Sequence record: PQ476010.1
DNA length: 40,478 bases
Source of the DNA: Escherichia phage PhiNW-B1
Strand: one strand, 5' to 3'
The notes beneath the pieces were generated by a model. The model ran no database searches, was not told where the DNA came from, and saw nothing but the letters and a program-made list of their open reading frames with translations. Numbering within the stretch: the first letter of the stretch is position 1; each line of letters opens with the position of its first letter. Of this stretch, positions 265 to 40,153 are shown piece after piece. A program made the position numbers and the translations under genes.

Positions 265-267
265 GTG

Positions 268-312
268 TTAGACTCAAGGTCATTACTGTATGTAGTGGCC
301 TTTATGGTTAAC
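268..312 (+). promoter_or_regulatory. conserved hairpin element (AAGGTCA / TGGCCTT arms), candidate RNase III processing site upstream of 18.5
   Basis: arms 276-282 and 296-302 pair with one G-U wobble; same element recurs at 5472, 9264 and 16633. Confidence 0.4.
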
Positions 313-366
313 ACTAACTAGTGGAGGAGACTCTACGTGAAAATCTGATAAACCGGGAGGGCAACT

Positions 367-810
367 ATGCTCGAATTTTTAAAGAGAGCGGCTCCGTGGT
401 TACTTGCAGCAGTGATGTTTGCTGGTGGCTACCACACCGCTAACAATAAGTGGGAGGCTAAGGTAAATGCAGAATACACCTCGAATCTTAAGGCATCGGA
501 AGATACAAGGCTTGCTGTCCAAGCTGAAGTCAACAAAGTGTCCAAACGGTTTCAGGACGAAATGTCCTCGCTGGAAGGCAGCACTGATAGGATTATTGCT
601 GACCTTAAGTCTGACAATAAGCGGTTGCGCATCCGAGTCAAACCAACGAGTGGAACCACGCAAAGTGACGGTCGATGCGTCATTGATGATTACGCCGAAC
701 TTGACGAACGAGATGCTAAACGTCTTATCTCCATCGGACTGAAAGGAGACGCTTGGATTAAAGCACTACAGGACACTGTGAGATCATTGCAGCAAGATAA
801 GGAGAAATAA
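367..810 (+). CDS. 18.5: i-spanin (Rz-like, T7 gp18.5-like)
   Basis: 147-aa ORF with N-terminal hydrophobic segment; position after gene 18; RBS GGGAGGG upstream. Confidence 0.8.
   Translation: MLEFLKRAAPWLLAAVMFAGGYHTANNKWEAKVNAEYTSNLKASEDTRLAVQAEVNKVSKRFQDEMSSLEGSTDRIIADLKSDNKRLRIRVKPTSGTTQSDGRCVIDDYAELDERDAKRLISIGLKGDAWIKALQDTVRSLQQDKEK
467..742 (+). CDS. 18.7: o-spanin (Rz1-like lipoprotein, gp18.7-like) embedded in +1 frame of 18.5; true start uncertain
   Basis: ORF wholly inside 18.5 in another frame; lipobox-like LTISGC preceded by hydrophobic stretch ALIGLLLTLSL; N-terminal 35 aa before signal is atypical so start may be internal or non-canonical. Confidence 0.5.
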   Translation: MQNTPRILRHRKIQGLLSKLKSTKCPNGFRTKCPRWKAALIGLLLTLSLTISGCASESNQRVEPRKVTVDASLMITPNLTNEMLNVLSPSD

Positions 811-1196
811 TGCTAACCGACTTTACTTACTCAGATGGGAAGTTGTTCAGGAAGGGACGCGAAGTCGGCTCAATGGACAACCACGGGTATCTAAGGACTA
901 CGGTCAACTACCGTAAGTATCTCGTACACCGTCTAATCTACAAGCTACACAACCCTGAGTTCGACCTTGAGTCAGACCTCGTTATTGACCACATCAACCG
1001 CGACCGAACAGACAACAGGATTGAAAACCTTCGGGCTGTGACTAAGGCTGAAAACAACAGGAACAGGGACCTACCGAGAGGCGTGTCTTATTGCAAACAG
1101 ACCGGGAAGTGGAAGGCTATCCAACCTCGCTGGCTCGGTCGATTTGATACTGAACAGGAGGCCATAGATGCAGTTAACGCCGCAAGAGCGGAATGA
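810..1196 (+). CDS. HNH homing endonuclease with C-terminal AP2-like DNA-binding region
   Basis: motif [28 protein letters not shown] (HNH); C-terminal GVSY...WKA...LGRF..EQEAIDA; RBS AAGGAG; ATG overlaps 18.5 stop (ATAATG). Confidence 0.8.
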
Positions 1197-2931
1197 GGCA
1201 GTAACCAATCGGATGAAAGAAGACTTCGTGTTCTTCTTATTTGTCCTCTGGAAAGCACTTAGCCTACCAGTACCAACCAGATGCCAGATAGATATGGCCC
1301 GTAAGCTCTCCGCTGGGGACAACAGGCGCTTCATCCTACAGGCGTTCCGTGGTATAGGGAAGTCCTTCATTACGTGTGCCTTCGTGGTCTGGAAGCTATG
1401 GAATAACCCAGACTTGAAGTTCATGATTGTGTCGGCCTCAAAGGAACGAGCCGATGCTAACTCCATCTTCATCAAGCGAATCATCGACCTCATGCCTCAG
1501 CTTCGGGAACTCAAACCTAAGCAGGGGCAGCGAGATGCGGTTATCAGCTTCGACGTTGGACCAGCCAAGCCAGACCACTCACCTTCGGTTAAGTCCGTTG
1601 GTATCACTGGTCAGTTGACTGGTAGCCGTGCTGACATCCTGATTGCCGATGACGTGGAGGTTCCGAACAACTCAGCGACTCAGGCTGCCCGAGACCGTCT
1701 GTCAGAGCTTGTGAAAGAGTTCGACGCTATCCTGAAGCCGGGAGGTACAATCATCTATCTGGGTACTCCTCAGAACGAGATGACCTTGTATCGTGAGCTG
1801 GAAGGCCGTGGGTACACCACTACTATCTGGCCTGCTCGTTATCCACGCGACAGGAAGGACTGGCAGTCTTACGGCGACCGTCTGACTCCTATGCTTCAGG
1901 CAGAGCTTGAAGAGGACCCTGAGTCCTTCTACTGGCGTCCTACCGATGAAGTACGATTCGATGATACGGACCTGAAGGAACGTGAGCTGTCCTATGGTAA
2001 AGCTGGCTTCGCTCTACAGTTCATGCTTAACCCTAACCTAAGTGATGCCGAGAAGTACCCTCTGAAGCTCCGTGACCTTATCGTAGCAGACTTGGACCCA
2101 GCGTCTAGCCCAATGGTCTACCAATGGCTTCCTAACCCTCAGAACAAGCGTGAGGACGTTCCTAACGTTGGACTCATGGGTGACTCATACCACACGTATC
2201 AGACTGTAGGTTCTGCCTTCAGTTCGTACACCCAGAAGATTCTGGTCATTGACCCTAGTGGTCGTGGTAAGGATGAAACTGGCTATGCGGTACTGTATCA
2301 GCTCAACGGCTACATCTTCGCTATGGAAGTTGGTGGTATGCGTGGTGGTTATGAAGACTCTACGCTGGAAGCACTAGCTAAGATTGGTCGTAAGTGGAAG
2401 GTCAACGAATACGTCATTGAGGGTAACTTCGGCGATGGTATGTACCTTGAGCTATTCAAGCCTGTAGCGGCCCGTATCCATCCTGCTGCTGTAACTGAAG
2501 TGAAGAGTAAGGGTCAGAAAGAACTCCGCATCTGTGACGTTCTGGAGCCTATCATGGGGTCTCACCGACTTATCGTTAACGCTGCTGCTATCGTCCAAGA
2601 CTACCAGTCAGCCTCTGATAAGGATGGTGTGCGTAACCCTATCTACTCTCTCTTCTACCAGATGACCCGTATCTCTCGTGAACGTGGAGCCTTGGCACAC
2701 GATGACCGACTTGATGCGCTGGCTATCGGTGTACAGTTCTTCGTTGAGTCGATGGCTAAGGATGCCAACAAAGGCGAACGTGAAGTCACTGAGGAGTGGC
2801 TGGAGGAACAGATGGAGAACCCACGGAAAGGCTTCGAGTCCATCCACACTGAGTTCTGGGACAATGGGGTCCGGGTGACTCACGATACGGACGACGAGCT
2901 GGGACTAGGGTCATACGTTACGTTCCACTAG
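1168..2931 (+). CDS. 19: DNA maturase B / large terminase subunit (T7 gp19-like)
   Basis: 587 aa; strong similarity by recall to T7 gp19 ([49 protein letters not shown]); RBS AGGAGG 6 nt upstream. Confidence 0.95.
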
Positions 2932-2940
2932 CTTAATGAA

Positions 2941-2989
2941 TAACTATAGGTGAAAACTGCATGAATACGCAGTTAGTAACCTATAGTTA
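2941..2989 (+). repeat. 49-nt palindrome (11-bp perfect outer stem TAACTATAGGT/ACCTATAGTTA with nested 6-bp stem) immediately after gene 19
   Basis: arms 2941-2951 and 2979-2989 are exact reverse complements; inner AACTGC/GCAGTT 2954-2959 and 2970-2975. Confidence 0.6.
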
Positions 2990-3025
2990 CTACCAGTCTA
3001 ACCTACTGTTTTACAAGGAGTTTGG

Positions 3026-3048
3026 ACTTAACTATCACTATAGGGAAG
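3026..3048 (+). promoter_or_regulatory. phage RNAP promoter (phiOR-like), +1 G at 3043
   Basis: ACTTAACTATCACTATAGGGAAG matches the 23-bp consensus repeated 11 times in the window; located between gene 19 and 19.5 as phiOR is in T7. Confidence 0.75.
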
Positions 3049-3227
3049 ACCCCCGGTTACTTATAGTATTACTGTAGTGAATATACATATGCAGACTTTA
3101 TGCAAGACCTTAGGAGGCAGACTCCGAGTTCTTACCTAAGGCTTGCACCGATGGAAGGAGGTGATATTAATCATAATACCTCCAATACAGATAGTCACAG
3201 ACCATAGATACAGGAGGTATGTAGCAT

Positions 3228-4811: not shown

Positions 4812-5315
4812 ATGGAACGTAATGCTAACGCATACTATGAGCTGCTGGCTGCAACCGTTGAGGCATTTATCGAGCGTATTCAGTACGACCACCTGACTCA
4901 AGATGATGACTACAGCGATGCGCTGCATGAGGTCGTAGACGGTCAGGTTCCACACTATTACCACGAGATTTTTACGGTGATGGCTGCTGATGGTATAGAC
5001 CACGAGTTCGAAGACTCTGGGCTGATGCCTGAAACCAAGGACGTAACGCGTATACTACAAGCTCGCATCTATGAGGCGCTTTATAACGATGTGTCTAATA
5101 GCTTGGATGTAGTCTGGTTTGAGGCTGAAGAGGCAGACGAAGAGGATGAATATTGGGTAGTTGACGCTAAAACAGGCGCAATAATTGTGCAAGCTGTAGC
5201 TCTTGAGGTCGCTACTGCATGTGCCAAGGTCAACTATGCAATAGGTCGCCACCTGAAGGTGGAAGACATCAATGATAACGTAGTGTTCGACCCTGCGGCT
5301 GAGGACTGCGAGTGA
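4812..5315 (+). CDS. ocr: Ocr-like anti-restriction DNA mimic (T7 gp0.3 homolog) with about 54-aa C-terminal extension
   Basis: N-terminal ~113 aa align by recall to T7 Ocr ([35 protein letters not shown]); 167 aa versus 117 in T7. Confidence 0.85.
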
Positions 5316-30281: not shown

Positions 30282-32564
30282 ATGGCTAGTAATATTGAAT
30301 CAGCTCTGGCTAATCGGACTATGGGTCGTGGCAGAGCGCCGGGTAAAACTATCGCCGTCAACTATCAAGCAGCCAGCGTTCAGGCTCCGACTGGTGACTC
30401 CGGTCTGGCCCGTGCGTTAACCAACTTCGTTGAGTCTGGAACTGGATTGTACAAGCAGTTCAAAGATGATGAGAAGACGCGGGCTGACGAGAGGTCTAAC
30501 GAGATTATCCGTAAGCTGACCCCTCAGCAGAGACGAGAGGCTATCCAGAACGGGACACTGCTGTATCAGGACGACCCGTATGCTATGGAAGCACTTCGAG
30601 TCAAGACAGGTCGTAACGCTGCCTTTGCGGTGGATGACGAGATTAACGTTAAGATTCAGAACGGTGAGTTCCGTACACGTCAGGACATGGAAGAGTATCG
30701 CCACCAGCGACTTCAGGACGCCGCTAAGTCCTATGCTGAAGAGGCGGGTATTAACCCTACAGATGAGTTCTTCCAGCGCGGGTTCAACGATAACATCACA
30801 GACCGAAACATCGCTATCTATGGGTCTTTCAATAAGTATTTCAGTAAGCAGTCTGAAGAGACAGCAATGTTGAATACTCGTATTGAGATGAACTCATTCC
30901 TGAACGATGGCGACCTGATGCGTTCACCTGAGTCTGGCAAGACCTTCATGGCCTACCTTCGTGATGGACTAACTACTGCTGCTATCCCTTCGGACCAGCG
31001 AGCACGGGAGGTAATTACCCAGACGGTCCGTGACGCAATCCAGAAGTCAGGCGGCTCCAACTTCCTACAGCAAGTACGAGGCGAGCGAATCACCCTTAAC
31101 GGTGTGGATGCTACAGTCGAAGAGATTGTAGGACCTGATGTCTTCAACGCTGCTATTGTTGAGGCGCAAGGAACTGAGTACAAGCTGGTGGCTAAGTATC
31201 AGGAGGACTTAGCGTTAGGCGTTCAGTCTGCGATTCTTCAGGACGACCCAACCATCGGTCTGGACCAGATTCAGAAACTCAAGGAGCAGAACAACCTGCT
31301 TCAACCGGGTGAAGAACTCACGCCTCAGCGTCAGATGCTTATTAATGCCGAAGCCAGCTTGCTTGAAGCGGTAAAGCGTAAGTCTGCTGAACAGGCGAAG
31401 GAGAACACTAAGTTAATCCAGACTCAGAACAAGCAACTGGTAATTGACCAAGTGTATCAGCGACGTCTGGCTGGGGACAACGTGTCCACCAACTATGAGG
31501 ACCTTCCAGTCTCAGATGCTACAGGCGAGTTCAAGCGTTCTGACATGAACAACTATGCGTCTGCCAAGCTACAGCAGATTGACCAGATGGACATACCTGA
31601 GGCTGCTAAAGACGCTCAGAAGGTGGCATTGTTAAGAGCTGACACTAACAACGGTCCGTTCCGTAATGCCTTCCAGACTCTAACTCAGGACGCTGCTGGC
31701 GAGTGGCAAGCTGCGGTCATCCGGGGACAGTACGACCCAGACAAGATGCAACGCTTCGAGTCTCTTCGTCGTGCCTACACTCAGGACCCTTCAAGTTTTG
31801 CAGCTCTGTATCCTGACCAAGCTCAGTTGTTCTCTACGTTCGACCAGATGGACAAGATGGGTCTGGACCCTCAGACGATGATTGAAGCTGATAAGCAAGC
31901 TGCAAGTCAAAGCCGTGAGATGCGAATGGAGTCAGACAAGGCGTGGCAGGAGTTGAAGAACGACTCCAAGAACACCCAGTTGTCTCGCCTCCCAACGTCT
32001 CTGGACTCAAGTGCTCGTAAGGTCTGGGACTCATGGTACTATCGTACAGGGAACGCTGACGCTGCAACTCAGCAGACTCAACGCTGGCTTAACGAGAACA
32101 CCGTAACGTTCCAATCTGAAGGTTCGGACGGTAAGTCCATCGGCATGGTGTCCAAACACCAGCTTATGGTCGGGGATAACCCAGAGTCGTGGCAGGTGGG
32201 TCGAGACATTATCGACACAGCTCGTCAGCAGCTCATTAAGGCCAACCCTTGGGTAGTGAACTCTCAGCTCTCCGTAGTTGAGCAGAACGGCTCGGTCTTC
32301 CTTCAGGACGCTACCGGGACTATTCGTATTCGATACGATAAAGAGCTGGTAGGCAAACTGTACCGTGAACAGCAGAAGCAAGCCGAGGATAAAGCCTACG
32401 CTGAGGCCGAACGTAAAGCCAACACCCGCGCTCGCATTGTCGAGACTAAAGCGGCTGGTGATAAGCGTCGTAACGAGCGTGAAGCTAATATCCAGAAACG
32501 GGGCGGTATGTACAGCGATGTCTCTCTGGAGGGTATCGCAAACACCTTAATCGGTAAGGAGTAA
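30282..32564 (+). CDS. 15: internal virion protein B (T7 gp15 homolog)
   Basis: 760 aa (T7 747); position. Confidence 0.9.
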   Translation: MASNIESALANRTMGRGRAPGKTIAVNYQAASVQAPTGDSGLARALTNFVESGTGLYKQFKDDEKTRADERSNEIIRKLTPQQRREAIQNGTLLYQDDPYAMEALRVKTGRNAAFAVDDEINVKIQNGEFRTRQDMEEYRHQRLQDAAKSYAEEAGINPTDEFFQRGFNDNITDRNIAIYGSFNKYFSKQSEETAMLNTRIEMNSFLNDGDLMRSPESGKTFMAYLRDGLTTAAIPSDQRAREVITQTVRDAIQKSGGSNFLQQVRGERITLNGVDATVEEIVGPDVFNAAIVEAQGTEYKLVAKYQEDLALGVQSAILQDDPTIGLDQIQKLKEQNNLLQPGEELTPQRQMLINAEASLLEAVKRKSAEQAKENTKLIQTQNKQLVIDQVYQRRLAGDNVSTNYEDLPVSDATGEFKRSDMNNYASAKLQQIDQMDIPEAAKDAQKVALLRADTNNGPFRNAFQTLTQDAAGEWQAAVIRGQYDPDKMQRFESLRRAYTQDPSSFAALYPDQAQLFSTFDQMDKMGLDPQTMIEADKQAASQSREMRMESDKAWQELKNDSKNTQLSRLPTSLDSSARKVWDSWYYRTGNADAATQQTQRWLNENTVTFQSEGSDGKSIGMVSKHQLMVGDNPESWQVGRDIIDTARQQLIKANPWVVNSQLSVVEQNGSVFLQDATGTIRIRYDKELVGKLYREQQKQAEDKAYAEAERKANTRARIVETKAAGDKRRNEREANIQKRGGMYSDVSLEGIANTLIGKE

Positions 32565-32566
32565 AC

Positions 32567-33016
32567 ATGAAGAACGGGACAGCCAGTGAGAGACTGGCAG
32601 AACTGTCAGTAGCTGAAGAGTCTGGCTGTATCCGCTTCACCGGAAGCATTGAGAAGTCCGGGTACGGAAGGATAATGGTCAACAGGGTCAAATACGGAGC
32701 GCATAGACTTGCTTACGAGCTTGCTAACGGTCCTATACCCGATGGGTACGTTGTTCGCCATAAGTGCGACAACCCGTCCTGTATAAACCCAAGCCACCTT
32801 GAAGTCGGCACCCAAGCTGATAACATAAAGGATAAGGTGACTAGAGGTCGCCAAGCGTCAGGATGCTCCATAGGAGTATCTAAGCTCACTGAGGAAAGTG
32901 TGCGTGACATAAGGTCCAGCGACCTAAAGGTTTCACTCTTGGCTGAACGCTATGGAGTGAGTACGGTTTCTATTAGAAATATCTTGAGGAGAAAGACATG
33001 GCAACACGTGGAGTAA
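32567..33016 (+). CDS. HNH homing endonuclease inserted between genes 15 and 16
   Basis: motif VVRHKCDNPSCINPSHLEVGTQADN (HNH with Cys/His ligands); TAAGGAG RBS; packed with 2-nt gap to gene 15 and 19-nt overlap into gene 16. Confidence 0.85.
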   Translation: MKNGTASERLAELSVAEESGCIRFTGSIEKSGYGRIMVNRVKYGAHRLAYELANGPIPDGYVVRHKCDNPSCINPSHLEVGTQADNIKDKVTRGRQASGCSIGVSKLTEESVRDIRSSDLKVSLLAERYGVSTVSIRNILRRKTWQHVE

Positions 33017-36000
33017 GGAACGCAAATCCGGGCAATATCCGTAAGTCAAAAGACCAATGGGAAGGTGCTGTTGGCGATGACGGTGCATTCGTTATCTTCG
33101 ATAGTCCTGAATCTGGAGTAAGAGCATTAGCGAAAAACCTTCAAAGCTACGGTCGACAGGGCTATGACTCAATCGAGAAGATTATCAACCGCTGGGCACC
33201 ACCTAACGAGAACGACACTCAGTCCTACATCGACTCGGTTGTGGCTGCGACTGGTATTCCTGCAACCCAAAGTATCGACCTGAGCAACCCTGATGTACTC
33301 GCCTCTCTGTCTGAGGCTATCGGCTACCATGAGACTGGTTCCCGGTATGACCCTGAGGTCTACAAGACTGGCGTATCTCGTGCCTTAAGTGGTGCTGGAG
33401 GCATCACCCCAAAGACCTCACCAGTAAGCGCTAACGTCTTCGACGCTCTCACGGAGGGCTTGAAGTCGAAACCTAAAGTCGCTCTGGGAGAGAACCTTCC
33501 GGGCGTTACTGGTATGAACATCGAAGGTCAAGCACCTGAGGCTCCCAACGAGTCCTTCGGAGAGATGTTCTATAAGTCAACTGGCGAGACGCTGGACCAA
33601 CGGGCTGACCGCTCTACGTGGTTCGGCTTCGGTGGAGCTGCTGAGGCTGAAGTGAAGAACTCTATGGTCGGCGTGGCTATCCGCGCTGGTCAGACTGAGG
33701 ACTCACTGGATGTCATTGGCGATGTGTTCAACCCAACCCGATGGAACAACCATAAGTGGACTCGTGAGGAGCTGGACCAGATTCGTAACGCTGGGGTTCT
33801 GCCTCAGTATTACGGAGTCATTACTGGCGGCTCTCCTCAGAACCTGACTGAGCTTATTAACTTGGCGCTTGAGAACCAGAAGTTGGACCAAGAGAAGGCC
33901 AAGGCGGGGACTGGCGCTCAACTGGCGGCTGGTGTGATTGGTGCTGGCGTGGACCCTCTGACCTACGTTCCTATTGCTGGGCAGGTAGGTAAGGGCGGGA
34001 AGCTAATCAACAAGATGTTCACTGTGGCTGCTCAGTCTGGTGCTCTGGCTGGGGCATCCGAGATTGCTCGAACCTCAGTTGCTGGTGGGGACGCTCATGT
34101 GGCTGAGGCAATTATGGGCGGTGCTCTCTTCGGTGGGGGAATGACAGCTATCGGGGACGCTATCGGCAAGGCCTTAGGCAAGTCAACCAACGAGTTCGCC
34201 GGGCCAGCCACACGTCTGGAAGCCCGTGAGACTGCACGTAATGTTGATGGTCAGGACCTGTCGCGTATGCCAATCCGTGAAGGAGAGGAGACCTTTAGGC
34301 ATCAAGGAGTTAAGTTCGCTGACGTTCCGAATGAGCCGGGTAGTGTACGGCTTGAAGACGGCTCAATCCTGATTGGTGAGAACCCTCTGAACCCTAAGAC
34401 ACGTCAGGTCTTTGACGAAGTGATTGAGCCTGAACGGGCCGCTGCTGGTGTGAACCTTGGTGGTCTGACTGAGATTGGCCTGAAGCTGCTTCGGTCTGAG
34501 AACCCTGAGATTCGTGGAGTAGCTGCTGACTTAGTGCGTTCACCGACTGGTATGCAGTCTGGGGCATCAGGTAAAATCGGGACCACTGCGTCTGACGTAT
34601 TCGAGAGACTTCGTGCTGTGGACCATCGGTTCTACAACGACATCGACGATGCGGTTACTGAGGCACTAAAGGACCCGTACTTCCAGACAGCATTCTGGCG
34701 AGACTCTGGAGCATTCCGTCAGGACATCTACCAGCGCGTGTCTATGGCTATCGAAGATGGTAGCGGAAATCTGAAGGCTGAACTGACTCCTGGAGAACTG
34801 AAAGTCTATGACCTACTGAAGAACCAGTTTGACGCCAAGCGTGAGATGATGGAGAACCCGGCGATGTTTGGTCGTCCAGACGCTCAGTCTATCTTTCCGG
34901 GCAGCCGCTTCAAGGGAACATACGTCCCGCATGTGTATAGCAACCAGATGAAGGAGCTGTACATCAAGGAGCTTGGGAGTCCAGAGGCACTACAGGAGGC
35001 CATCAAGAAGTCATGGTTGACCAGCTATGCGTCTCGACCTGAGGTCAAGAAACGTGTGGACGAGGCACTCTTAGAGGCTGACCCTACGTTGACTCCAGAA
35101 GGACTTGCGGCTGCGGTCGATAAGTACGCCAACGATAAGGCTTATGGTATCTCTCACACCGAGCAGTTCGAGCGTTCATCCGTAATGGAAGAGAACATCA
35201 ATGGTCTGGTGGGTCTGGAGAACAACAGCTTCCTTGAGGCTCGTAACCTGTTCGATAGCGATATGTCAATCGTCCTACCTAACGGTCAGACCTTCAGTGT
35301 CAACAACCTGCGTGAGTGGGACATGGACAAGATTGTCCCGGCCTACAACCGTCGAGTTAATGGCGATATTGCTATCATGGCTGGTACAGGCAAGACCACG
35401 AAGGACATGAAGGACTTGGTTGAGACCATGATGAACAAGGCTGGGGATGACGGTAAGTTGAAAGGTGAAGTATCTACCTTACGTGACACTTTGAAGATTC
35501 TAACCGGTCGTGCTAGACGTGATGGTGCTGATGATGCGGCCTTCGCTACCGTGATGCGCACAATGACAGACCTATCGTTCTTCGCTAAGAATGCCTACAT
35601 GGGTGTTCAGAACTTAACGGAGATTGGTGGTATGCTGGCCCGTGGTAACGTTCGTGCAATGCTGCATGGAGTCCCAATTTTCCGTGACCTAGCCTTCCGT
35701 AACAAGAAAGTTGGGGCCTCAGAGATTAAGGACCTGCACAATGTTATCTTTGGTAAGGAGCTGGATGACTCAATCCGTCCGTCTAAACAGGATGTCATTG
35801 ACCGCCTGCGATCTTACAGTGACCTCGGTCGTGGTACAGCTACAGCTCTGGGGACTGCCAAGTATTACACTGGCGAACTTGCAGTACGCTCTCCGTTCAC
35901 TAAAGTCCTCAACGGTACGACCAACTACCTGTTAGATGCTGGACGTCAAGGCTTCCTGTCTGACATCGTGGAGCATAGCCTGACTGGTAGTAAGCGTAAG

Positions 36001-36894
36001 TTCGATGACCGCTGGCTTAAGACCGCTGGTATCTCTGACGAGCAGTGGAAGGGCATTAAGTCCCTCATCCGTGAGTCAGTGACTCGTGGTCCAGACGGGA
36101 AGTACACCATTAAGGATAAGAAGGCGTTCAGTCAGGACCCAAGGGCTATGGACCTGTGGCGTATGGGTGATACCATCGCTGACGAAACGTTACTACGTCC
36201 TCATAAGCTGTCCAACATGGACGCAAAGGCTTATGGTCCTCTCGCTAAGACTGTCCTTCAGTTTAAGAACTTCGTCATCAAGTCCATCAATGGACGTACC
36301 ATGCGAACCTTCTATAACGCCACGAAGAACAACCGAGCGATGGACGCTGCCCTGTCCACTGTGATCTCTATGGGTCTTGCTGGTATCTACTACATGGCTC
36401 AGGCTCATGTCAAGGCTTACGCTATGCAGGATGGTCGAGACCGTGACTACCTCAAGCAAGCTCTAGACCCGACGATGATTGGATATGCAGCTCTATCGCG
36501 TAGTTCACACCTTGGTGGACCACTTGGGGTAGCTAACATTCTGGGTGGCATCGCTGGGTATGAGGACACTAAGATGCTCCGTTCGTCTATCCTACCTCGT
36601 TCGCCCACAGAGAAGCCTGAACGTGCAATCGCGTATGGTGCAGCTACAAGTGACCCTGTGATGAATGTTGTTGGTAACTTCTTGGAGCAGGTTCCAGCTT
36701 TCGGATATGCTGCTAACGTTGGTGCTTCGGCTTATAACTTGGCTGGCTACCTGAAGGCCGACACTCGGGTAAACGAGCGAGACTACATGACCGGGATGTA
36801 TAACACCTTCCGTGAACTGGTTCCGAACGACCCGATTACTCAGAAGTTGCTACTGGGAACGTTTGAGGAGCAAGGTATCCACATCAAGGACTAA
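32998..36894 (+). CDS. 16: internal virion protein D (T7 gp16 homolog) with divergent N-terminal domain
   Basis: 1298 aa (T7 1318); from about residue 200 onward co-linear with T7 gp16 by recall (TWFGF..AAEAE, RWN.H.WT.EEL, PVDPL.YVP, LVRSPTGMQSGASGK, NDKAYGISH, NGDIAIM); first ~130 aa differ. Confidence 0.95.
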   Translation: MATRGVRNANPGNIRKSKDQWEGAVGDDGAFVIFDSPESGVRALAKNLQSYGRQGYDSIEKIINRWAPPNENDTQSYIDSVVAATGIPATQSIDLSNPDVLASLSEAIGYHETGSRYDPEVYKTGVSRALSGAGGITPKTSPVSANVFDALTEGLKSKPKVALGENLPGVTGMNIEGQAPEAPNESFGEMFYKSTGETLDQRADRSTWFGFGGAAEAEVKNSMVGVAIRAGQTEDSLDVIGDVFNPTRWNNHKWTREELDQIRNAGVLPQYYGVITGGSPQNLTELINLALENQKLDQEKAKAGTGAQLAAGVIGAGVDPLTYVPIAGQVGKGGKLINKMFTVAAQSGALAGASEIARTSVAGGDAHVAEAIMGGALFGGGMTAIGDAIGKALGKSTNEFAGPATRLEARETARNVDGQDLSRMPIREGEETFRHQGVKFADVPNEPGSVRLEDGSILIGENPLNPKTRQVFDEVIEPERAAAGVNLGGLTEIGLKLLRSENPEIRGVAADLVRSPTGMQSGASGKIGTTASDVFERLRAVDHRFYNDIDDAVTEALKDPYFQTAFWRDSGAFRQDIYQRVSMAIEDGSGNLKAELTPGELKVYDLLKNQFDAKREMMENPAMFGRPDAQSIFPGSRFKGTYVPHVYSNQMKELYIKELGSPEALQEAIKKSWLTSYASRPEVKKRVDEALLEADPTLTPEGLAAAVDKYANDKAYGISHTEQFERSSVMEENINGLVGLENNSFLEARNLFDSDMSIVLPNGQTFSVNNLREWDMDKIVPAYNRRVNGDIAIMAGTGKTTKDMKDLVETMMNKAGDDGKLKGEVSTLRDTLKILTGRARRDGADDAAFATVMRTMTDLSFFAKNAYMGVQNLTEIGGMLARGNVRAMLHGVPIFRDLAFRNKKVGASEIKDLHNVIFGKELDDSIRPSKQDVIDRLRSYSDLGRGTATALGTAKYYTGELAVRSPFTKVLNGTTNYLLDAGRQGFLSDIVEHSLTGSKRKFDDRWLKTAGISDEQWKGIKSLIRESVTRGPDGKYTIKDKKAFSQDPRAMDLWRMGDTIADETLLRPHKLSNMDAKAYGPLAKTVLQFKNFVIKSINGRTMRTFYNATKNNRAMDAALSTVISMGLAGIYYMAQAHVKAYAMQDGRDRDYLKQALDPTMIGYAALSRSSHLGGPLGVANILGGIAGYEDTKMLRSSILPRSPTEKPERAIAYGAATSDPVMNVVGNFLEQVPAFGYAANVGASAYNLAGYLKADTRVNERDYMTGMYNTFRELVPNDPITQKLLLGTFEEQGIHIKD

Positions 36895-36958: not shown

Positions 36959-39900
36959 ATGTCCACGATTACACAATTCCCTTCAGGAAACACTCAGTAC
37001 AGGATTGAGTTCGACTACCTAGCCAGAACGTTTGTTGTTGTTACGCTGGTGAATAGCTCTAACCCTACCCTGAACCGTGTACTGGAAGTTGGTCGAGATT
37101 ACCGATTCCTTAATCCAACGATGATTGAGATGTTGGTTGACCAATCAGGTTTCGACATCGTTCGTATTCACCGTCAGACTGGAACTGACTTAGTGGTAGA
37201 CTTCAGGAATGGCTCAGTGTTGACAGCTAGTGACCTGACCAATTCAGAGCTTCAGGCTATCCATATTGCAGAAGAAGGTCGAGACCAAACGGTTGACTTA
37301 GCGAAGGAATATGCCGATGCTGCTGGTAGCTCTGCTGGCAACGCTAAGGATAGCGAGGACGAAGCACGCCGAATCGCTGAGAGTATCAGGGCAGCTGGTC
37401 TAATTGGCTATATGACCCGTCGCTCCTTCGAGAAAGGCTACAACGTTACAACATGGAGCGAGGTCCTGCTATGGGAAGAGGATGGTGATTATTACCGCTG
37501 GGATGGTACGCTTCCAAAGAACGTTCCTGCTGGTTCAACTCCTGAAACTTCCGGTGGGATTGGATTAGGTGCGTGGGTTAGTGTTGGTGATGCTGCTTTA
37601 AGAAGTCAGATTTCAAATCCTGAAGGGGCAATACTCTACCCTGAATTACATAGAGCACGCTGGCTTGATGAAAAAGATGTTCGTGGTTGGGGTGCTAAAG
37701 GGGATGGTGTCACTGATGATACAGCAGCATTAACGAGCGCATTAAACGACACACCGGTTGGACAAAAGATTAATGGCAATGGGGGAACATATAAGGTCAC
37801 ATCCCTGCCTGACATTAGTAGATTCGTCAATACTCGTTTTGTATATGAACGTATTCCTGGTCAGCCGCTTTATTATGTCTCTGAAGAATTTGTTCAAGGT
37901 GAACTGTTTAAAATAACGGACACCCCTTATTACAATGCGTGGCCACAGGATAAAGCGTTCGTTTACGATGATGTTATTTACTGCCCGTTCATGGCTGGTG
38001 ATAGACATGGGGTCAGTCGTCTGCATGTATCATGGGTTAAGTCTGGTGATGACGGTCAAACATGGTCTACTCCAGAGTGGTTAACTGATCTGCATCCAGA
38101 TTACCCTACAGTGAACTATCATTGTATGAGCATGGGTGTATGTCGCAACCGTCTGTTTGCCATGATTGAAACACGTACTTTAGCCAAGAACGCACTAACC
38201 AATTGTGCATTGTGGGATCGTCCTATGTCTCGTAGTCTGCACCTTACTGGTGGTATCACTAAGGCTGCAAATCAGCAATATGCAACAATACATGTACCAG
38301 ATCACGGACTATTCGTGGGCGATTTTGTTAACTTCTCTAATTCTGCGGTAACAGGTGTATCAGGTGATATGACTGTTGCAACGGTAATAGATAAGGACAA
38401 CTTCACGGTCCTTACACCTAACCAGCAGACTTCAGATTTGAATAACGCTGGAAAGAGTTGGCACATGGGTACTTCTTTCCATAAGTCTCCATGGCGTAAG
38501 ACAGATCTTGGTCTAATCCCTCGTGTCACAGAGGTGCATAGCTTTGCTACTATTGATAACAATGGCTTTGTTATGGGCTATCATCAAGGTGATGTAGCTC
38601 CACGAGAAGTTGGTCTTTTCTACTTCCCCGATGCTTTCAATAGCCCATCTAATTATGTTCGTCGTCAGATACCATCTGAGTATGAACCAGATGCGTCAGA
38701 GCCATGCATCAAGTACTATGACGGTGTATTATACCTTATCACTCGTGGCACTCGTGGTGACAGACTTGGAAGCTCTTTGCATCGTAGTAGAGATATAGGT
38801 CAGACTTGGGAGTCACTGAGATTTCCACATAATGTTCATCATACTACATTACCTTTTGCTAAAGTAGGGGATGACCTTATTATGTTTGGTTCAGAACGTG
38901 CAGAAAATGAATGGGAAGCAGGTGCACCAGATGATCGTTACAAGGCATCTTATCCTCGCACCTTCTATGCACGCTTGAATGTAAACAATTGGAATGCAGA
39001 TGGTATTGAATGGGTTAACATCACTGACCAGATTTATCAGGGCGGAATAGTTAACTCAGGTGTAGGTGTTGGTTCGGTAGTTGTGAAGGATAATTACATC
39101 TACTACATGTTTGGTGGAGAGGACCATTTTAACCCATGGACATATGGCGATAACTCAGCGAAAGACCCATTCAAATCGGATGGTCACCCCTCGGATTTGT
39201 ATTGCTACAAAATGAAGATTGGCCCAGACAATCGTGTTTCCAGAGATTTCAGATATGGTGCTGTACCCAACAGAGCTGTTCCCGTGTTTTTTGATACGAA
39301 TGGGATTCGCACTGTTCCTGCGCCAATGGAATTTACAGGGGATTTGGGTTTAGGTCATGTGACCCTTAGAGCCAGCACCAGTAGTAACATTCGCTCTGAA
39401 GTTTTAATGGAAGGTGAATATGGGTTTATCGGGAAGTCTATACCGACTGATAACCCGGCAGGGCAGCGCACCATATTTTGCGGGGGTGAAGGCACCAGTT
39501 CAACGACTGGCGCACAGATTACGCTTTATGGTGCAAATAACACCGACTCAAGGCGAATAGTTTACAATGGTGATGAGCATCTGTTCCAGACTGCTGATGT
39601 TAAGCCTTATAACGATAACGTCACTGCGCTTGGTGGGCCTAGCAACCGTTTCACCACTGCATACCTCGGAAGTAACCCTATTGTTACTTCTAATGGGGAG
39701 AAGAAAACAGAGCCGGTAGTTTTTGATGATGCTTTCCTAGATGCCTGGGGTGACGTTCACTACATCATGTATCAATGGTTAGATGCTGTTCAACTGAAAG
39801 GCAATGATGCTCGTATTCACTTCGGGGTTATTGCTCAGCAAATTCGTGATGTATTCATTGCACACGGTCTGATGGATGAAAACAGTACGAATTGTCGTTA

Positions 39901-40153
39901 TGCCGTTCTGTGCTATGACAAGTATCCACGGATGACCGATACGGTATTTTCGCACAATGAAATCATTGAACACACTGACGAGGAGGGCAATGTCACTACT
40001 ACGGAAGAGCCTGTATTCACTGAGGTTGTTATCCATGAAGAGGGTGAGGAGTGGGGTGTTCGGCCTGACGGAATTTTCTTTGCTGAAGCCGCTTATCAGA
40101 GAAGAAAACTGGAAAGAATCGAAGCCAGACTTTCTGCTCTTGAACAGAAGTAA
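36959..40153 (+). CDS. 17: tail spike: T7 gp17-like N-terminal adaptor fused to endo-N-acetylneuraminidase (endosialidase) and C-terminal intramolecular chaperone domain
   Basis: 1064 aa; N-terminus MSTITQFPSGNTQYRIEFDYLARTFVVVTLVNSS resembles T7 gp17 N-terminus; two Asp-boxes SGDDGQTW (38042-38065) and SRDIGQTW (38786-38809); same length as the K1F endosialidase precursor by recall. Confidence 0.93.
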   Translation: MSTITQFPSGNTQYRIEFDYLARTFVVVTLVNSSNPTLNRVLEVGRDYRFLNPTMIEMLVDQSGFDIVRIHRQTGTDLVVDFRNGSVLTASDLTNSELQAIHIAEEGRDQTVDLAKEYADAAGSSAGNAKDSEDEARRIAESIRAAGLIGYMTRRSFEKGYNVTTWSEVLLWEEDGDYYRWDGTLPKNVPAGSTPETSGGIGLGAWVSVGDAALRSQISNPEGAILYPELHRARWLDEKDVRGWGAKGDGVTDDTAALTSALNDTPVGQKINGNGGTYKVTSLPDISRFVNTRFVYERIPGQPLYYVSEEFVQGELFKITDTPYYNAWPQDKAFVYDDVIYCPFMAGDRHGVSRLHVSWVKSGDDGQTWSTPEWLTDLHPDYPTVNYHCMSMGVCRNRLFAMIETRTLAKNALTNCALWDRPMSRSLHLTGGITKAANQQYATIHVPDHGLFVGDFVNFSNSAVTGVSGDMTVATVIDKDNFTVLTPNQQTSDLNNAGKSWHMGTSFHKSPWRKTDLGLIPRVTEVHSFATIDNNGFVMGYHQGDVAPREVGLFYFPDAFNSPSNYVRRQIPSEYEPDASEPCIKYYDGVLYLITRGTRGDRLGSSLHRSRDIGQTWESLRFPHNVHHTTLPFAKVGDDLIMFGSERAENEWEAGAPDDRYKASYPRTFYARLNVNNWNADGIEWVNITDQIYQGGIVNSGVGVGSVVVKDNYIYYMFGGEDHFNPWTYGDNSAKDPFKSDGHPSDLYCYKMKIGPDNRVSRDFRYGAVPNRAVPVFFDTNGIRTVPAPMEFTGDLGLGHVTLRASTSSNIRSEVLMEGEYGFIGKSIPTDNPAGQRTIFCGGEGTSSTTGAQITLYGANNTDSRRIVYNGDEHLFQTADVKPYNDNVTALGGPSNRFTTAYLGSNPIVTSNGEKKTEPVVFDDAFLDAWGDVHYIMYQWLDAVQLKGNDARIHFGVIAQQIRDVFIAHGLMDENSTNCRYAVLCYDKYPRMTDTVFSHNEIIEHTDEEGNVTTTEEPVFTEVVIHEEGEEWGVRPDGIFFAEAAYQRRKLERIEARLSALEQK

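Follow-up and report, generated by a model that had tools for sequence, protein, structure and literature searches.

The genome of Escherichia phage PhiNW-B1 (PQ476010.1) carries a short gene between those for the Rz-like inner-membrane spanin (gene 18.5) and the large terminase subunit (TerL, gene 19), a place where T7 has no gene (18.5 ends at position 37348 and 19 starts at 37370). This raises the question of whether the gene is part of the phage backbone or a mobile element, and how it is accommodated between its two neighbors. The window analyzed here, i.e., the whole stretch of 40,478 nucleotides, is a complete-looking T7-like genome whose numbering opens at the small-terminase gene (TerS), and it was placed within Kayfunavirus (K1F-like Studiervirinae; top Megablast match Kayfunavirus BDX03P1, 95%). 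The gene in question is an open reading frame (ORF) of its own, with its own ATG and stop codon, and lies outside any intron or intein (Table 1). Direct reading of the junction bore out the coordinates and both overlaps given in a preliminary description of the locus: the HNH ATG (810-812) has one A in common with the spanin stop codon (TAA, 808-810, giving TAATG), and the last 29 nt of the gene (1168-1196) are dual-coding with the start of TerL. An antisense ORF (1071..1493, minus strand, 140 aa) runs across the HNH and TerL genes and is presumed to be spurious.

Table 1. Features of the window around the Rz/TerL junction, with the TerS and tailspike genes
Feature	Coordinates	Strand	Basis
TerS (small terminase)	1..264		
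Gene 18.5 homologue, Rz-like inner-membrane spanin	367..810	+	PHROG 1327 1.8e-59; Pfam Phage_lysis 6e-5; ORF list
Shine-Dalgarno AAGGAG for the HNH ATG, 5 nt upstream	799..804	+	direct reading; junction alignments
405-bp block without counterpart in insert-free relatives	805..1209	+	blastn, alignments, TerL N-termini
Free-standing HNH-AP2 endonuclease gene (predicted), 128 aa	810..1196	+	ORF, domains, fold
HNH_3 (His-Me finger, 'HNN' type) catalytic core, aa 37-84	918..1061	+	Pfam 6.1e-18
Catalytic-core codons D60/H61; N73; N82	987-992; 1026-1028; 1053-1055	+	
C-terminal AP2-type DNA-binding domain (predicted), aa 89-127	1074..1190	+	predicted fold, signature
Shine-Dalgarno AGGAGG for TerL, 6 nt before ATG 1168	1156..1161	+	direct reading
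Gene 19 homologue, large terminase TerL	1168..2931	+	PF22530 6e-38; PHROG 38 2.7e-131
TerL codons 19-80, protein conserved, synonymous divergence strongly elevated	1222..1407	+	dS, 100-bp identity bins
Tailspike = endosialidase	36959..40153		

The encoded HNH-AP2 protein

The 128-aa protein matched PHROG 99 "HNH endonuclease" (8.3e-40) and, over the full profile (1-46), Pfam PF13392 (HNH_3; 64.6 bits against a cut-off of 24.8). The sole sequence match in the PDB was I-HmuI (1U3E), which was weak (E 0.05, identity 19-22%), so the claim of an I-HmuI-like enzyme rests on Pfam and on a fold search. Residues D60, H61, N73 and N82 aligned on D74, H75, N87 and N96 of I-HmuI, and in an alignment of 84 homologues D60, H61, N69, N73, L74 and R75 were invariant while N82 was conserved in at least 90%. 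The protein sequence has no CX2C dyads (its one cysteine is C95) and is for this reason assigned to the "HNN" subclass. Structure prediction by AlphaFold from the single sequence was unusable (pLDDT 56.5, HNH core <50) and was replaced by an AF2 model built on the 84-sequence alignment (pLDDT 95.1, pTM 0.73), in which the HNH core takes up the beta-beta-alpha-metal fold and the C-terminal part forms a three-stranded antiparallel sheet packed on a helix at the C-terminus, an arrangement that superposes on AP2/ERF domains of known structure. Foldseek searches with this model retrieved 1U3E (1.9e-4) and the AP2 domain of WRI1 (probability 1.0). The Pfam AP2 score was by itself sub-threshold (PF00847, 18.4 bits against a cut-off of 33.3, E 0.0027, profile 3-40 of 54), so membership in the AP2 group rests on the predicted fold and on the visible signature RGV...GKWKA.I...WLGRFDT.QEA..A...A; a precomputed PF00847 match is present on several homologues. 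Domain matches, predicted fold and intact catalytic residues thus agree with the preliminary description in indicating that a homing endonuclease gene of the free-standing HNH-AP2 kind occupies the 18.5/19 junction; metal-dependent DNA cleavage by its product is predicted from the sequence, and sequence-specific DNA binding by the AP2 region from the model.

Known enzymes resemble the protein to differing degrees. I-HmuI of Bacillus phage SPO1 is encoded in an intron, is 174 aa long and binds DNA at its C-terminal end through helical and helix-turn-helix modules, whereas the window's protein is free-standing, shorter and has an AP2-type end. Its domain grammar (boxes HRL..., D-H, DNR, NLR and EN, then AP2, with no CX2C) is that of the HNN-AP2 enzymes of Xanthomonas phages Xp10/OP1/Xop411, T5, T1 and RB43, a class defined by Mehta 2004 and Magnani 2004 as these are cited in PMC2248197; its AP2 domain is short, with 38 residues structurally aligned with plant AP2. 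T7 gp3.8, gp7.7 and gp5.3 are likewise small free-standing putative HNH genes in a T7-like genome, but the T7 genes occupy other loci (before gene 4, before gene 8) and show 27-29% pairwise identity in partial alignments. A profile of the HNH-AP2 family matched gp3.8 (8.6e-22) and gp7.7 (8.4e-9) as distant relatives, and left gp5.3 undetected.

Occupied and empty junctions

To delimit the insertion, the window was compared with the empty allele of phiHAO1-1. Matches by blastn to phiHAO1-1 L002 covered segments 1-804 and 1210-2200, homology ending after 804 and returning at 1210, and the intervening 405-bp block takes the place of 50 bp in the empty allele (L002 1005-1054). The block comprises the HNH gene together with a substitute TerL 5' end (Shine-Dalgarno sequence [SD], ATG and ~14-15 codons). 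The SD used by the HNH gene lies within the last codons of the Rz gene; in insert-free relatives AAGGAGG is the SD of TerL, whose TTG start there overlaps the Rz stop, and all insertions observed here have the AAGGAG motif as their left boundary. The new SD, ATG and first codons of TerL are all encoded in the 3' end of the HNH gene among the codons of the AP2 helix, the SD falling inside those for a conserved Q-E-A. The GGAGG before the TerL ATG was kept in seven of eight copies of the HNH-AP2 family (type A) that were compared, with fPS-59 having GGGAGGGAG there. The TerL N-terminus of insert-bearing genomes differs over ~14-15 codons from that of the empty allele (LSKDLVARQALM... or LSKDLVARQALMTT). 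This tight interlocking of an HNH cassette with translation initiation of both neighbors is mildly unusual.

Within Kayfunavirus the HNH-AP2 gene is rare and patchy. Window positions 300-1700 matched 550 phage records, only seven of which contain the insert: BDX03P1 (two records), Cronobacter phage vB_CtuP_B1, phiYIO1-1, BUCT788, Klebsiella phage P7124 and pO91. Most Kayfunaviruses show a 356-bp gap in their match to this region. With a 171-bp query spanning the phiHAO1-1 junction, an uninterrupted junction was found in 120 of 137 records, K1F included, and the junction DNA of these empty relatives was 88-100% identical. Tallied by occupancy, the HNH-AP2 gene was present in 7 records, no gene in 120, another HNH gene (type B) in 55 and unrelated ORFs in a few, placing the HNH-AP2 gene in only ~4% of sampled Kayfunavirus-like junctions. 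The presence/absence comparison across relatives proposed in the preliminary description therefore revealed a sporadic distribution. Among 80 TerL loci sampled from IMG/VR, none carried the HNH-AP2 family; three had a type-B-like HNH gene and the rest were empty or other junctions. In Yersinia fPS phages (Helsettvirus), the gene was found in 16/16 isolates (20 records) from a single sampling campaign, and in these sampled phages it looks fixed rather than sporadic.

Within Kayfunavirus and beyond, the family keeps to the same place. All members examined, the most divergent at 52% identity, were located at the Rz/TerL junction and had 8-53 nt in common with the start of TerL, and the ORF was full length in every copy examined. 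Homologues fell into identity tiers of 93-99%, 67-70%, 57% and 52%, all between Rz and TerL. Those at 67-70% identity (tblastn), directly 5' of TerL, came from the Yersinia fPS phages, Morganella phage Lilpapawes (Minipunavirus) and pO91, and metagenomic and genomic homologues at 80%, 68%, 70%, 57% and 52% had the spanin/TerL position on T7-like contigs, the 52% homologue sitting in a chromosome contig of Pseudomonas fluorescens. Hosts of the family thus span E. coli, Klebsiella, Cronobacter, Yersinia, Morganella and Pseudomonas. Because diverged homologues across genera all sit at Rz/TerL, the HNH-AP2 gene is, as judged from these sequence comparisons, an old lineage specialized for one junction. 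In this strict site fidelity it is unlike the HNN-AP2 genes of Xanthomonas phages, which occur at varying positions without conserved flanks (PMC2248197).

The same gene family has already been deposited and annotated at the same spot in other phages. Gp043/Gp045 of the fPS phages, gp57 of Lilpapawes and the pO91 copy belong to the group of relatives with 67-99% identity to the window's protein at this position, and copies 93-99% identical to it are labeled "hypothetical proteins" in vB_CtuP_B1, BDX03P1, phiYIO1-1, BUCT788 and P7124. All of these except Lilpapawes have the same 29-nt overlap with TerL (26 nt where the stop codon is TAA), and a TerL N-terminus of the form MQ(L/S)... is common to them. 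By sequence, the window's gene is accordingly a new allele with no difference in kind from deposited family members. Several homologues bear the GenBank label "homing endonuclease" or "putative homing endonuclease", and Gp045 of the fPS phages was noted as an apparent homing endonuclease, unusual among late genes (Salem & Skurnik 2018, PMC5923468); our literature search for a cleavage or homing experiment on type A or type B found annotations and remarks only. The preliminary description had taken the junction for a distinct insertion site, and it does lie apart from the HNH loci of T7, but it was already known from the fPS phages (PMC5923468) and, for a second HNH gene, from PMC8861465.

That second gene, type B (e.g., CR8 gp3.8A and vB_EcoP-101120B1-2), likewise stands free and encodes an HNH_3 protein. 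Its insertion point after AAGGAG is the same to the nucleotide, its start codon is coupled to the stop of Rz, and it both overlaps the TerL start and carries recoded TerL 5' codons of its own. It differs from the window's gene in that the two share 42% identity over the HNH core alone, in its length of 145 aa with a different C-terminal region, and in a TerL overlap of 8 nt versus 29 nt. In Hafnia phage Ca, a 397-bp HEG-containing fragment (HEG, homing endonuclease gene) lies between the lysin (Rz) gene and TerL, overlaps both and is polymorphic within the lysate, its presence or absence being linked to differences in plaque size; its best BLASTP match was CR44b (PMC8861465). We infer that this gene (ORF48) and the CR44b match are type B, because they are absent from the type-A matches at >60% identity and because the type-B search gave one Hafnia and five Citrobacter records (a list at the level of records). 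Unrelated ORFs at the junction were found in CLB_P1 (263 aa), Baskent_phicoli_1 (56 aa) and the Berlinvirus vB_YpP_T3 (256 aa), and every occupant begins directly after the same AAGGAG. CLB_P1 gp18.8 and vB_YpP_T3 ORF41 were considered as HNH relatives and rejected, since each proved dissimilar both to the HNH gene and to the other ORF.

Divergence, selection and mosaic flanks

The nearest copy of the window's HNH gene is that of Cronobacter phage vB_CtuP_B1 (99.2% aa identity, 94.6% nt identity). Nucleotide differences among Kayfunavirus copies amount to 5-13%, and dS between the window's gene and the other Kayfunavirus copies was 0.26-0.34. The preliminary description had regarded the acquisition as likely recent, which is not sustained by a nearest copy ~5% away in nucleotide sequence, by these dS values or by a family that is junction-bound across genera to 52% identity; with the nearest copy at a dS of ~0.26, no recent transfer from a sequenced donor is visible. 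Among HNH copies, dN/dS computed outside the TerL overlap was 0.03-0.16, and the HNH protein is therefore under purifying selection.

The histories of the HEG and of its backbone disagree, since their nearest relatives differ: the TerL backbone of the window is closest to that of HEG-free phiHAO1-1, and its HEG is closest to that of vB_CtuP_B1. In pO91, a patch of ~800 bp that runs from the 3' end of Rz through the HEG into the 5' end of TerL has 57-76% identity amid a backbone of 95-100%. These mosaic flanks, together with seven carriers against 120 uninterrupted junctions, support the initial view of a mobile rather than a backbone gene. Downstream of the insertion, dS relative to the window over TerL codons 19-80 ranged from 0.2 to >1.4 (some pairs saturated) for copies with a different TerL 5' allele, compared with 0.03-0.25 further downstream, and identity over 1222..1407 falls to 75-94% in 100-bp bins. 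No clear dS excess in these codons was seen for BDX03P1 and vB_CtuP_B1. From its sequence, this segment is a putative co-conversion or target-immunity tract beside the insertion site, in which altered TerL codons might confer immunity. No flank differences beyond the replaced 50 bp were fixed between HEG-bearing and HEG-free junctions (at K-E-D versus K-A-D, for example, pO91 deviates), and because no such position is fixed, we infer rather than observe the target.

Proposed homing and its alternatives

Probably, ORF 810..1196 is a free-standing HEG of the I-HmuI-like HNH ('HNN')-AP2 class, specialized for the 18.5/19 junction. When HEG-bearing and HEG-free phages infect the same cell, a long site in the insert-free allele would be bound by the AP2 domain together with the N-terminal beta-sheet region; this site most likely lies in the ~50 bp that run across the Rz stop and the start of TerL, or else in the earliest of the conserved TerL codons. 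Nicking or cutting would follow at the one HNH active site of the protein, with H61 as general base and D60 and N82 as metal ligands, and recombinational repair templated by the HEG-carrying genome would transfer the HEG, along with markers next to it, to the genome that had been cut. Since I-HmuI, the closest solved relative, is a monomeric enzyme that nicks DNA, the window's protein may plausibly cleave one strand and not both. Carriers of the HEG are proposed to be immune because the insert splits the site and the neighboring TerL codons are recoded. On insertion, the cassette would take over the SD at the Rz 3' end, its start becoming coupled to the Rz stop, and would provide TerL, from within its own 3' end, with an SD, an ATG and ~14-15 initial codons.

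This last property suggests, as a possibility that we regard as doubtful, that the HEG lineage has become wired into expression of the essential terminase, having captured the ancestral TerL SD and supplying in its stead an SD, an ATG and ~15 codons, the replacement SD being formed by the codons for the conserved Q/E-E-A in the AP2 helix. If so, loss by simple deletion would be impossible and the HEG could set the level of TerL synthesis, making it a partly "addictive", expression-coupled selfish gene and not a neutral passenger. Such coupling could explain the fidelity to the junction, the purifying selection and the plaque-size polymorphism of Hafnia phage Ca.

As a counterpoint to a HEG, a role that benefits the phage would also fit two of the observations, namely that the gene strictly adjoins TerL and that purifying selection on it is strong. 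One such role, which we consider unlikely, is that of a competition weapon by which the phage cuts co-infecting HEG-free relatives and excludes their terminase-region markers ("marker exclusion"). The molecular mechanism would be that of homing and only the selective reason would differ. Marker exclusion is exerted by the Seg and Mob enzymes of T4. For I-HmuI and I-HmuII in SPO1/SP82 it is said to have been described by Goodrich-Blair and Shub in 1996. A weapon of this kind would be consistent with the low dN/dS (0.03-0.16), with the persistence of the family at the junction across genera, with its apparent fixation in the fPS Helsettvirus isolates and with the rivalry for one site between two HNH lineages, both of which have a recoded TerL 5' allele of their own; a strong general advantage, however, would predict far more than the ~4% of junctions that are occupied.

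Much less credible is a function as a terminase accessory protein that aids cleavage of concatemers by terminase during packaging, on the model of HK97 gp74, an HNH protein adjoining the terminase genes that assists terminase cleavage according to the mention of Kala et al. 2014 in PMC8861465. The HNH gene always adjoins and overlaps TerL, and such a function was raised by the authors of Hafnia phage Ca for the other HNH gene at this junction, where plaque size varies with the 397-bp HEG fragment (PMC8861465). Against it, 120 close relatives are viable phages without any gene at the junction, T7 itself has nothing between 18.5 and 19, and TerL is of the T7 type with its own RNaseH-like nuclease domain (PF22530). 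Moreover, an I-HmuI-like HNN core with AP2 and no CX2C zinc motifs is characteristic of the homing class and not of the gp74 class; a packaging factor of the gp74 type was thus rejected on both distribution and domain type, the gene departing from that class in each respect. That the gene is an inactive relic or an AP2 DNA-binding regulator, kept for the ribosome-binding site and start of TerL, is highly improbable. In favor of such a relic, the ORF contains the SD, ATG and first codons of TerL, so that its 3' end is constrained and a simple deletion would be lethal, and degeneration after fixation is known for HNN-AP2 genes (PMC2248197). Against it, dN/dS is 0.03-0.16 on the part outside the TerL overlap, all catalytic and metal-binding positions are conserved and every copy examined is full length, the conserved catalytic residues and low dN/dS in particular making a dead relic unlikely.

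A homing endonuclease gene at this junction leaves the current understanding of homing endonucleases unchanged, and its main value lies in annotation and engineering. Several copies now listed as "hypothetical protein" can be named HNH-AP2 homing endonucleases. If the protein proves active, it would represent a site-specific nickase or nuclease of compact size (128 aa) that recognizes DNA through an AP2 module. The Rz/TerL junction is a candidate marker of recombination boundaries in therapeutic Kayfunavirus phages. Having received two HNH lineages and several unrelated ORFs, the junction has served repeatedly as a landing site in T7-like phages and is therefore a candidate permissive site for phage engineering, and the two HEG lineages competing for it would offer a tractable system in which to study HEG competition.

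Occupancy of the Rz/TerL junction

An open reading frame (ORF) nested within the Rz gene in another frame carries a lipobox-like motif, and is probably the Rz1/o-spanin (gene 18.7) expected here. This ORF ends 68 nt ahead of the HNH start, and Rz1 is therefore untouched by the insertion. In the other T7-like phages CLB_P1, vB_YpP_T3 and Baskent_phicoli_1, the Rz/TerL junction is filled by unrelated ORFs; those of CLB_P1 and vB_YpP_T3 resemble neither one another nor the HNH genes. CLB_P1 and Baskent_phicoli_1 keep their native TerL start region 3′ of the insert. In Yersinia phage fPS-53, an additional 58-aa ORF (g046) sits between Rz and the HNH gene, and a further ORF (g049) separates the two annotated pieces of TerL, an arrangement that could reflect an intron, intein or homing endonuclease gene (HEG) insertion within the terminase gene.

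A member of the HNH family (52% identity) also occupies the equivalent junction in a T7-like late-gene block of Pseudomonas fluorescens (tail fibre, holin, TerS, spanin-like ORF, HNH family member and TerL). Embedded in a 232-kb bacterial contig and adjoining efp, this block looks like an integrated T7-like prophage that carries this HEG family at the corresponding site.

Features of the window and of the compared loci
Feature	Source	Coordinates	Strand	Details
TerS-Rz intergenic spacer	window	265..366		no gene in window
ORF inside Rz gene, other frame	window	467..742	+	lipobox-like LTISGC motif
Synonymous-divergence spike	window	1222..1407		TerL codons 19-80
ocr DNA-mimic gene	window	4812..5315	+	
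Internal virion protein gene 15	window	30282..32564		upstream of second HNH_3 gene
Second free-standing HNH_3 gene	window	32567..33016	+	149 aa; Pfam 1.9e-17
Internal virion protein gene 16	window	32998..36894		downstream of second HNH_3 gene
Tailspike	window	36959..40153	+	End_beta_propel 9e-221
Rz/TerL junction ORF	CLB_P1 (L004)	1012..1803		263 aa
Rz/TerL junction ORF	vB_YpP_T3 (L094)	560..1330		256 aa
Rz/TerL junction ORF	Baskent_phicoli_1 (L005)	1010..1180		56 aa
TerL in two annotated pieces	fPS-53 (L009)	1859..3084		g048 + g050, 'Phage DNA packaging'
T7-like late-gene block	P. fluorescens GCA_005233585.1, contig QGAI01000010 (L100)	60070-66456		

Synonymous divergence in the TerL 5′ region

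In copies with a different TerL 5′ allele, dS across codons 19-80 ranged from 0.2 to >1.4 (rest of TerL: 0.03-0.25), with the protein almost unchanged despite this divergence; BDX03P1 and vB_CtuP_B1 had no clear excess. The pattern, common to genomes with the HNH-AP2 gene, without it, or with the second (type B) HNH lineage at the junction, suggests a recombination or co-conversion hotspot adjoining the insertion site.

Tailspike and further HEG sites

The tailspike has the full endosialidase architecture, which points to a K1-capsule-specific coliphage, resembling K1F in this indicated specificity. Gene 16 is overlapped at its start (19 nt) by a second HNH gene that is sporadic (16 of 217 matching records) and whose CR44b homologue is annotated '7.7C predicted homing endonuclease'. 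The TerS-Rz spacer is occupied by a further HNH or 'homing endonuclease' gene in BUCT788, phiYIO1-1, Morganella phage Lilpapawes and a metagenomic contig (L097), and the packaging/lysis module would thus contain at least two HEG landing sites.
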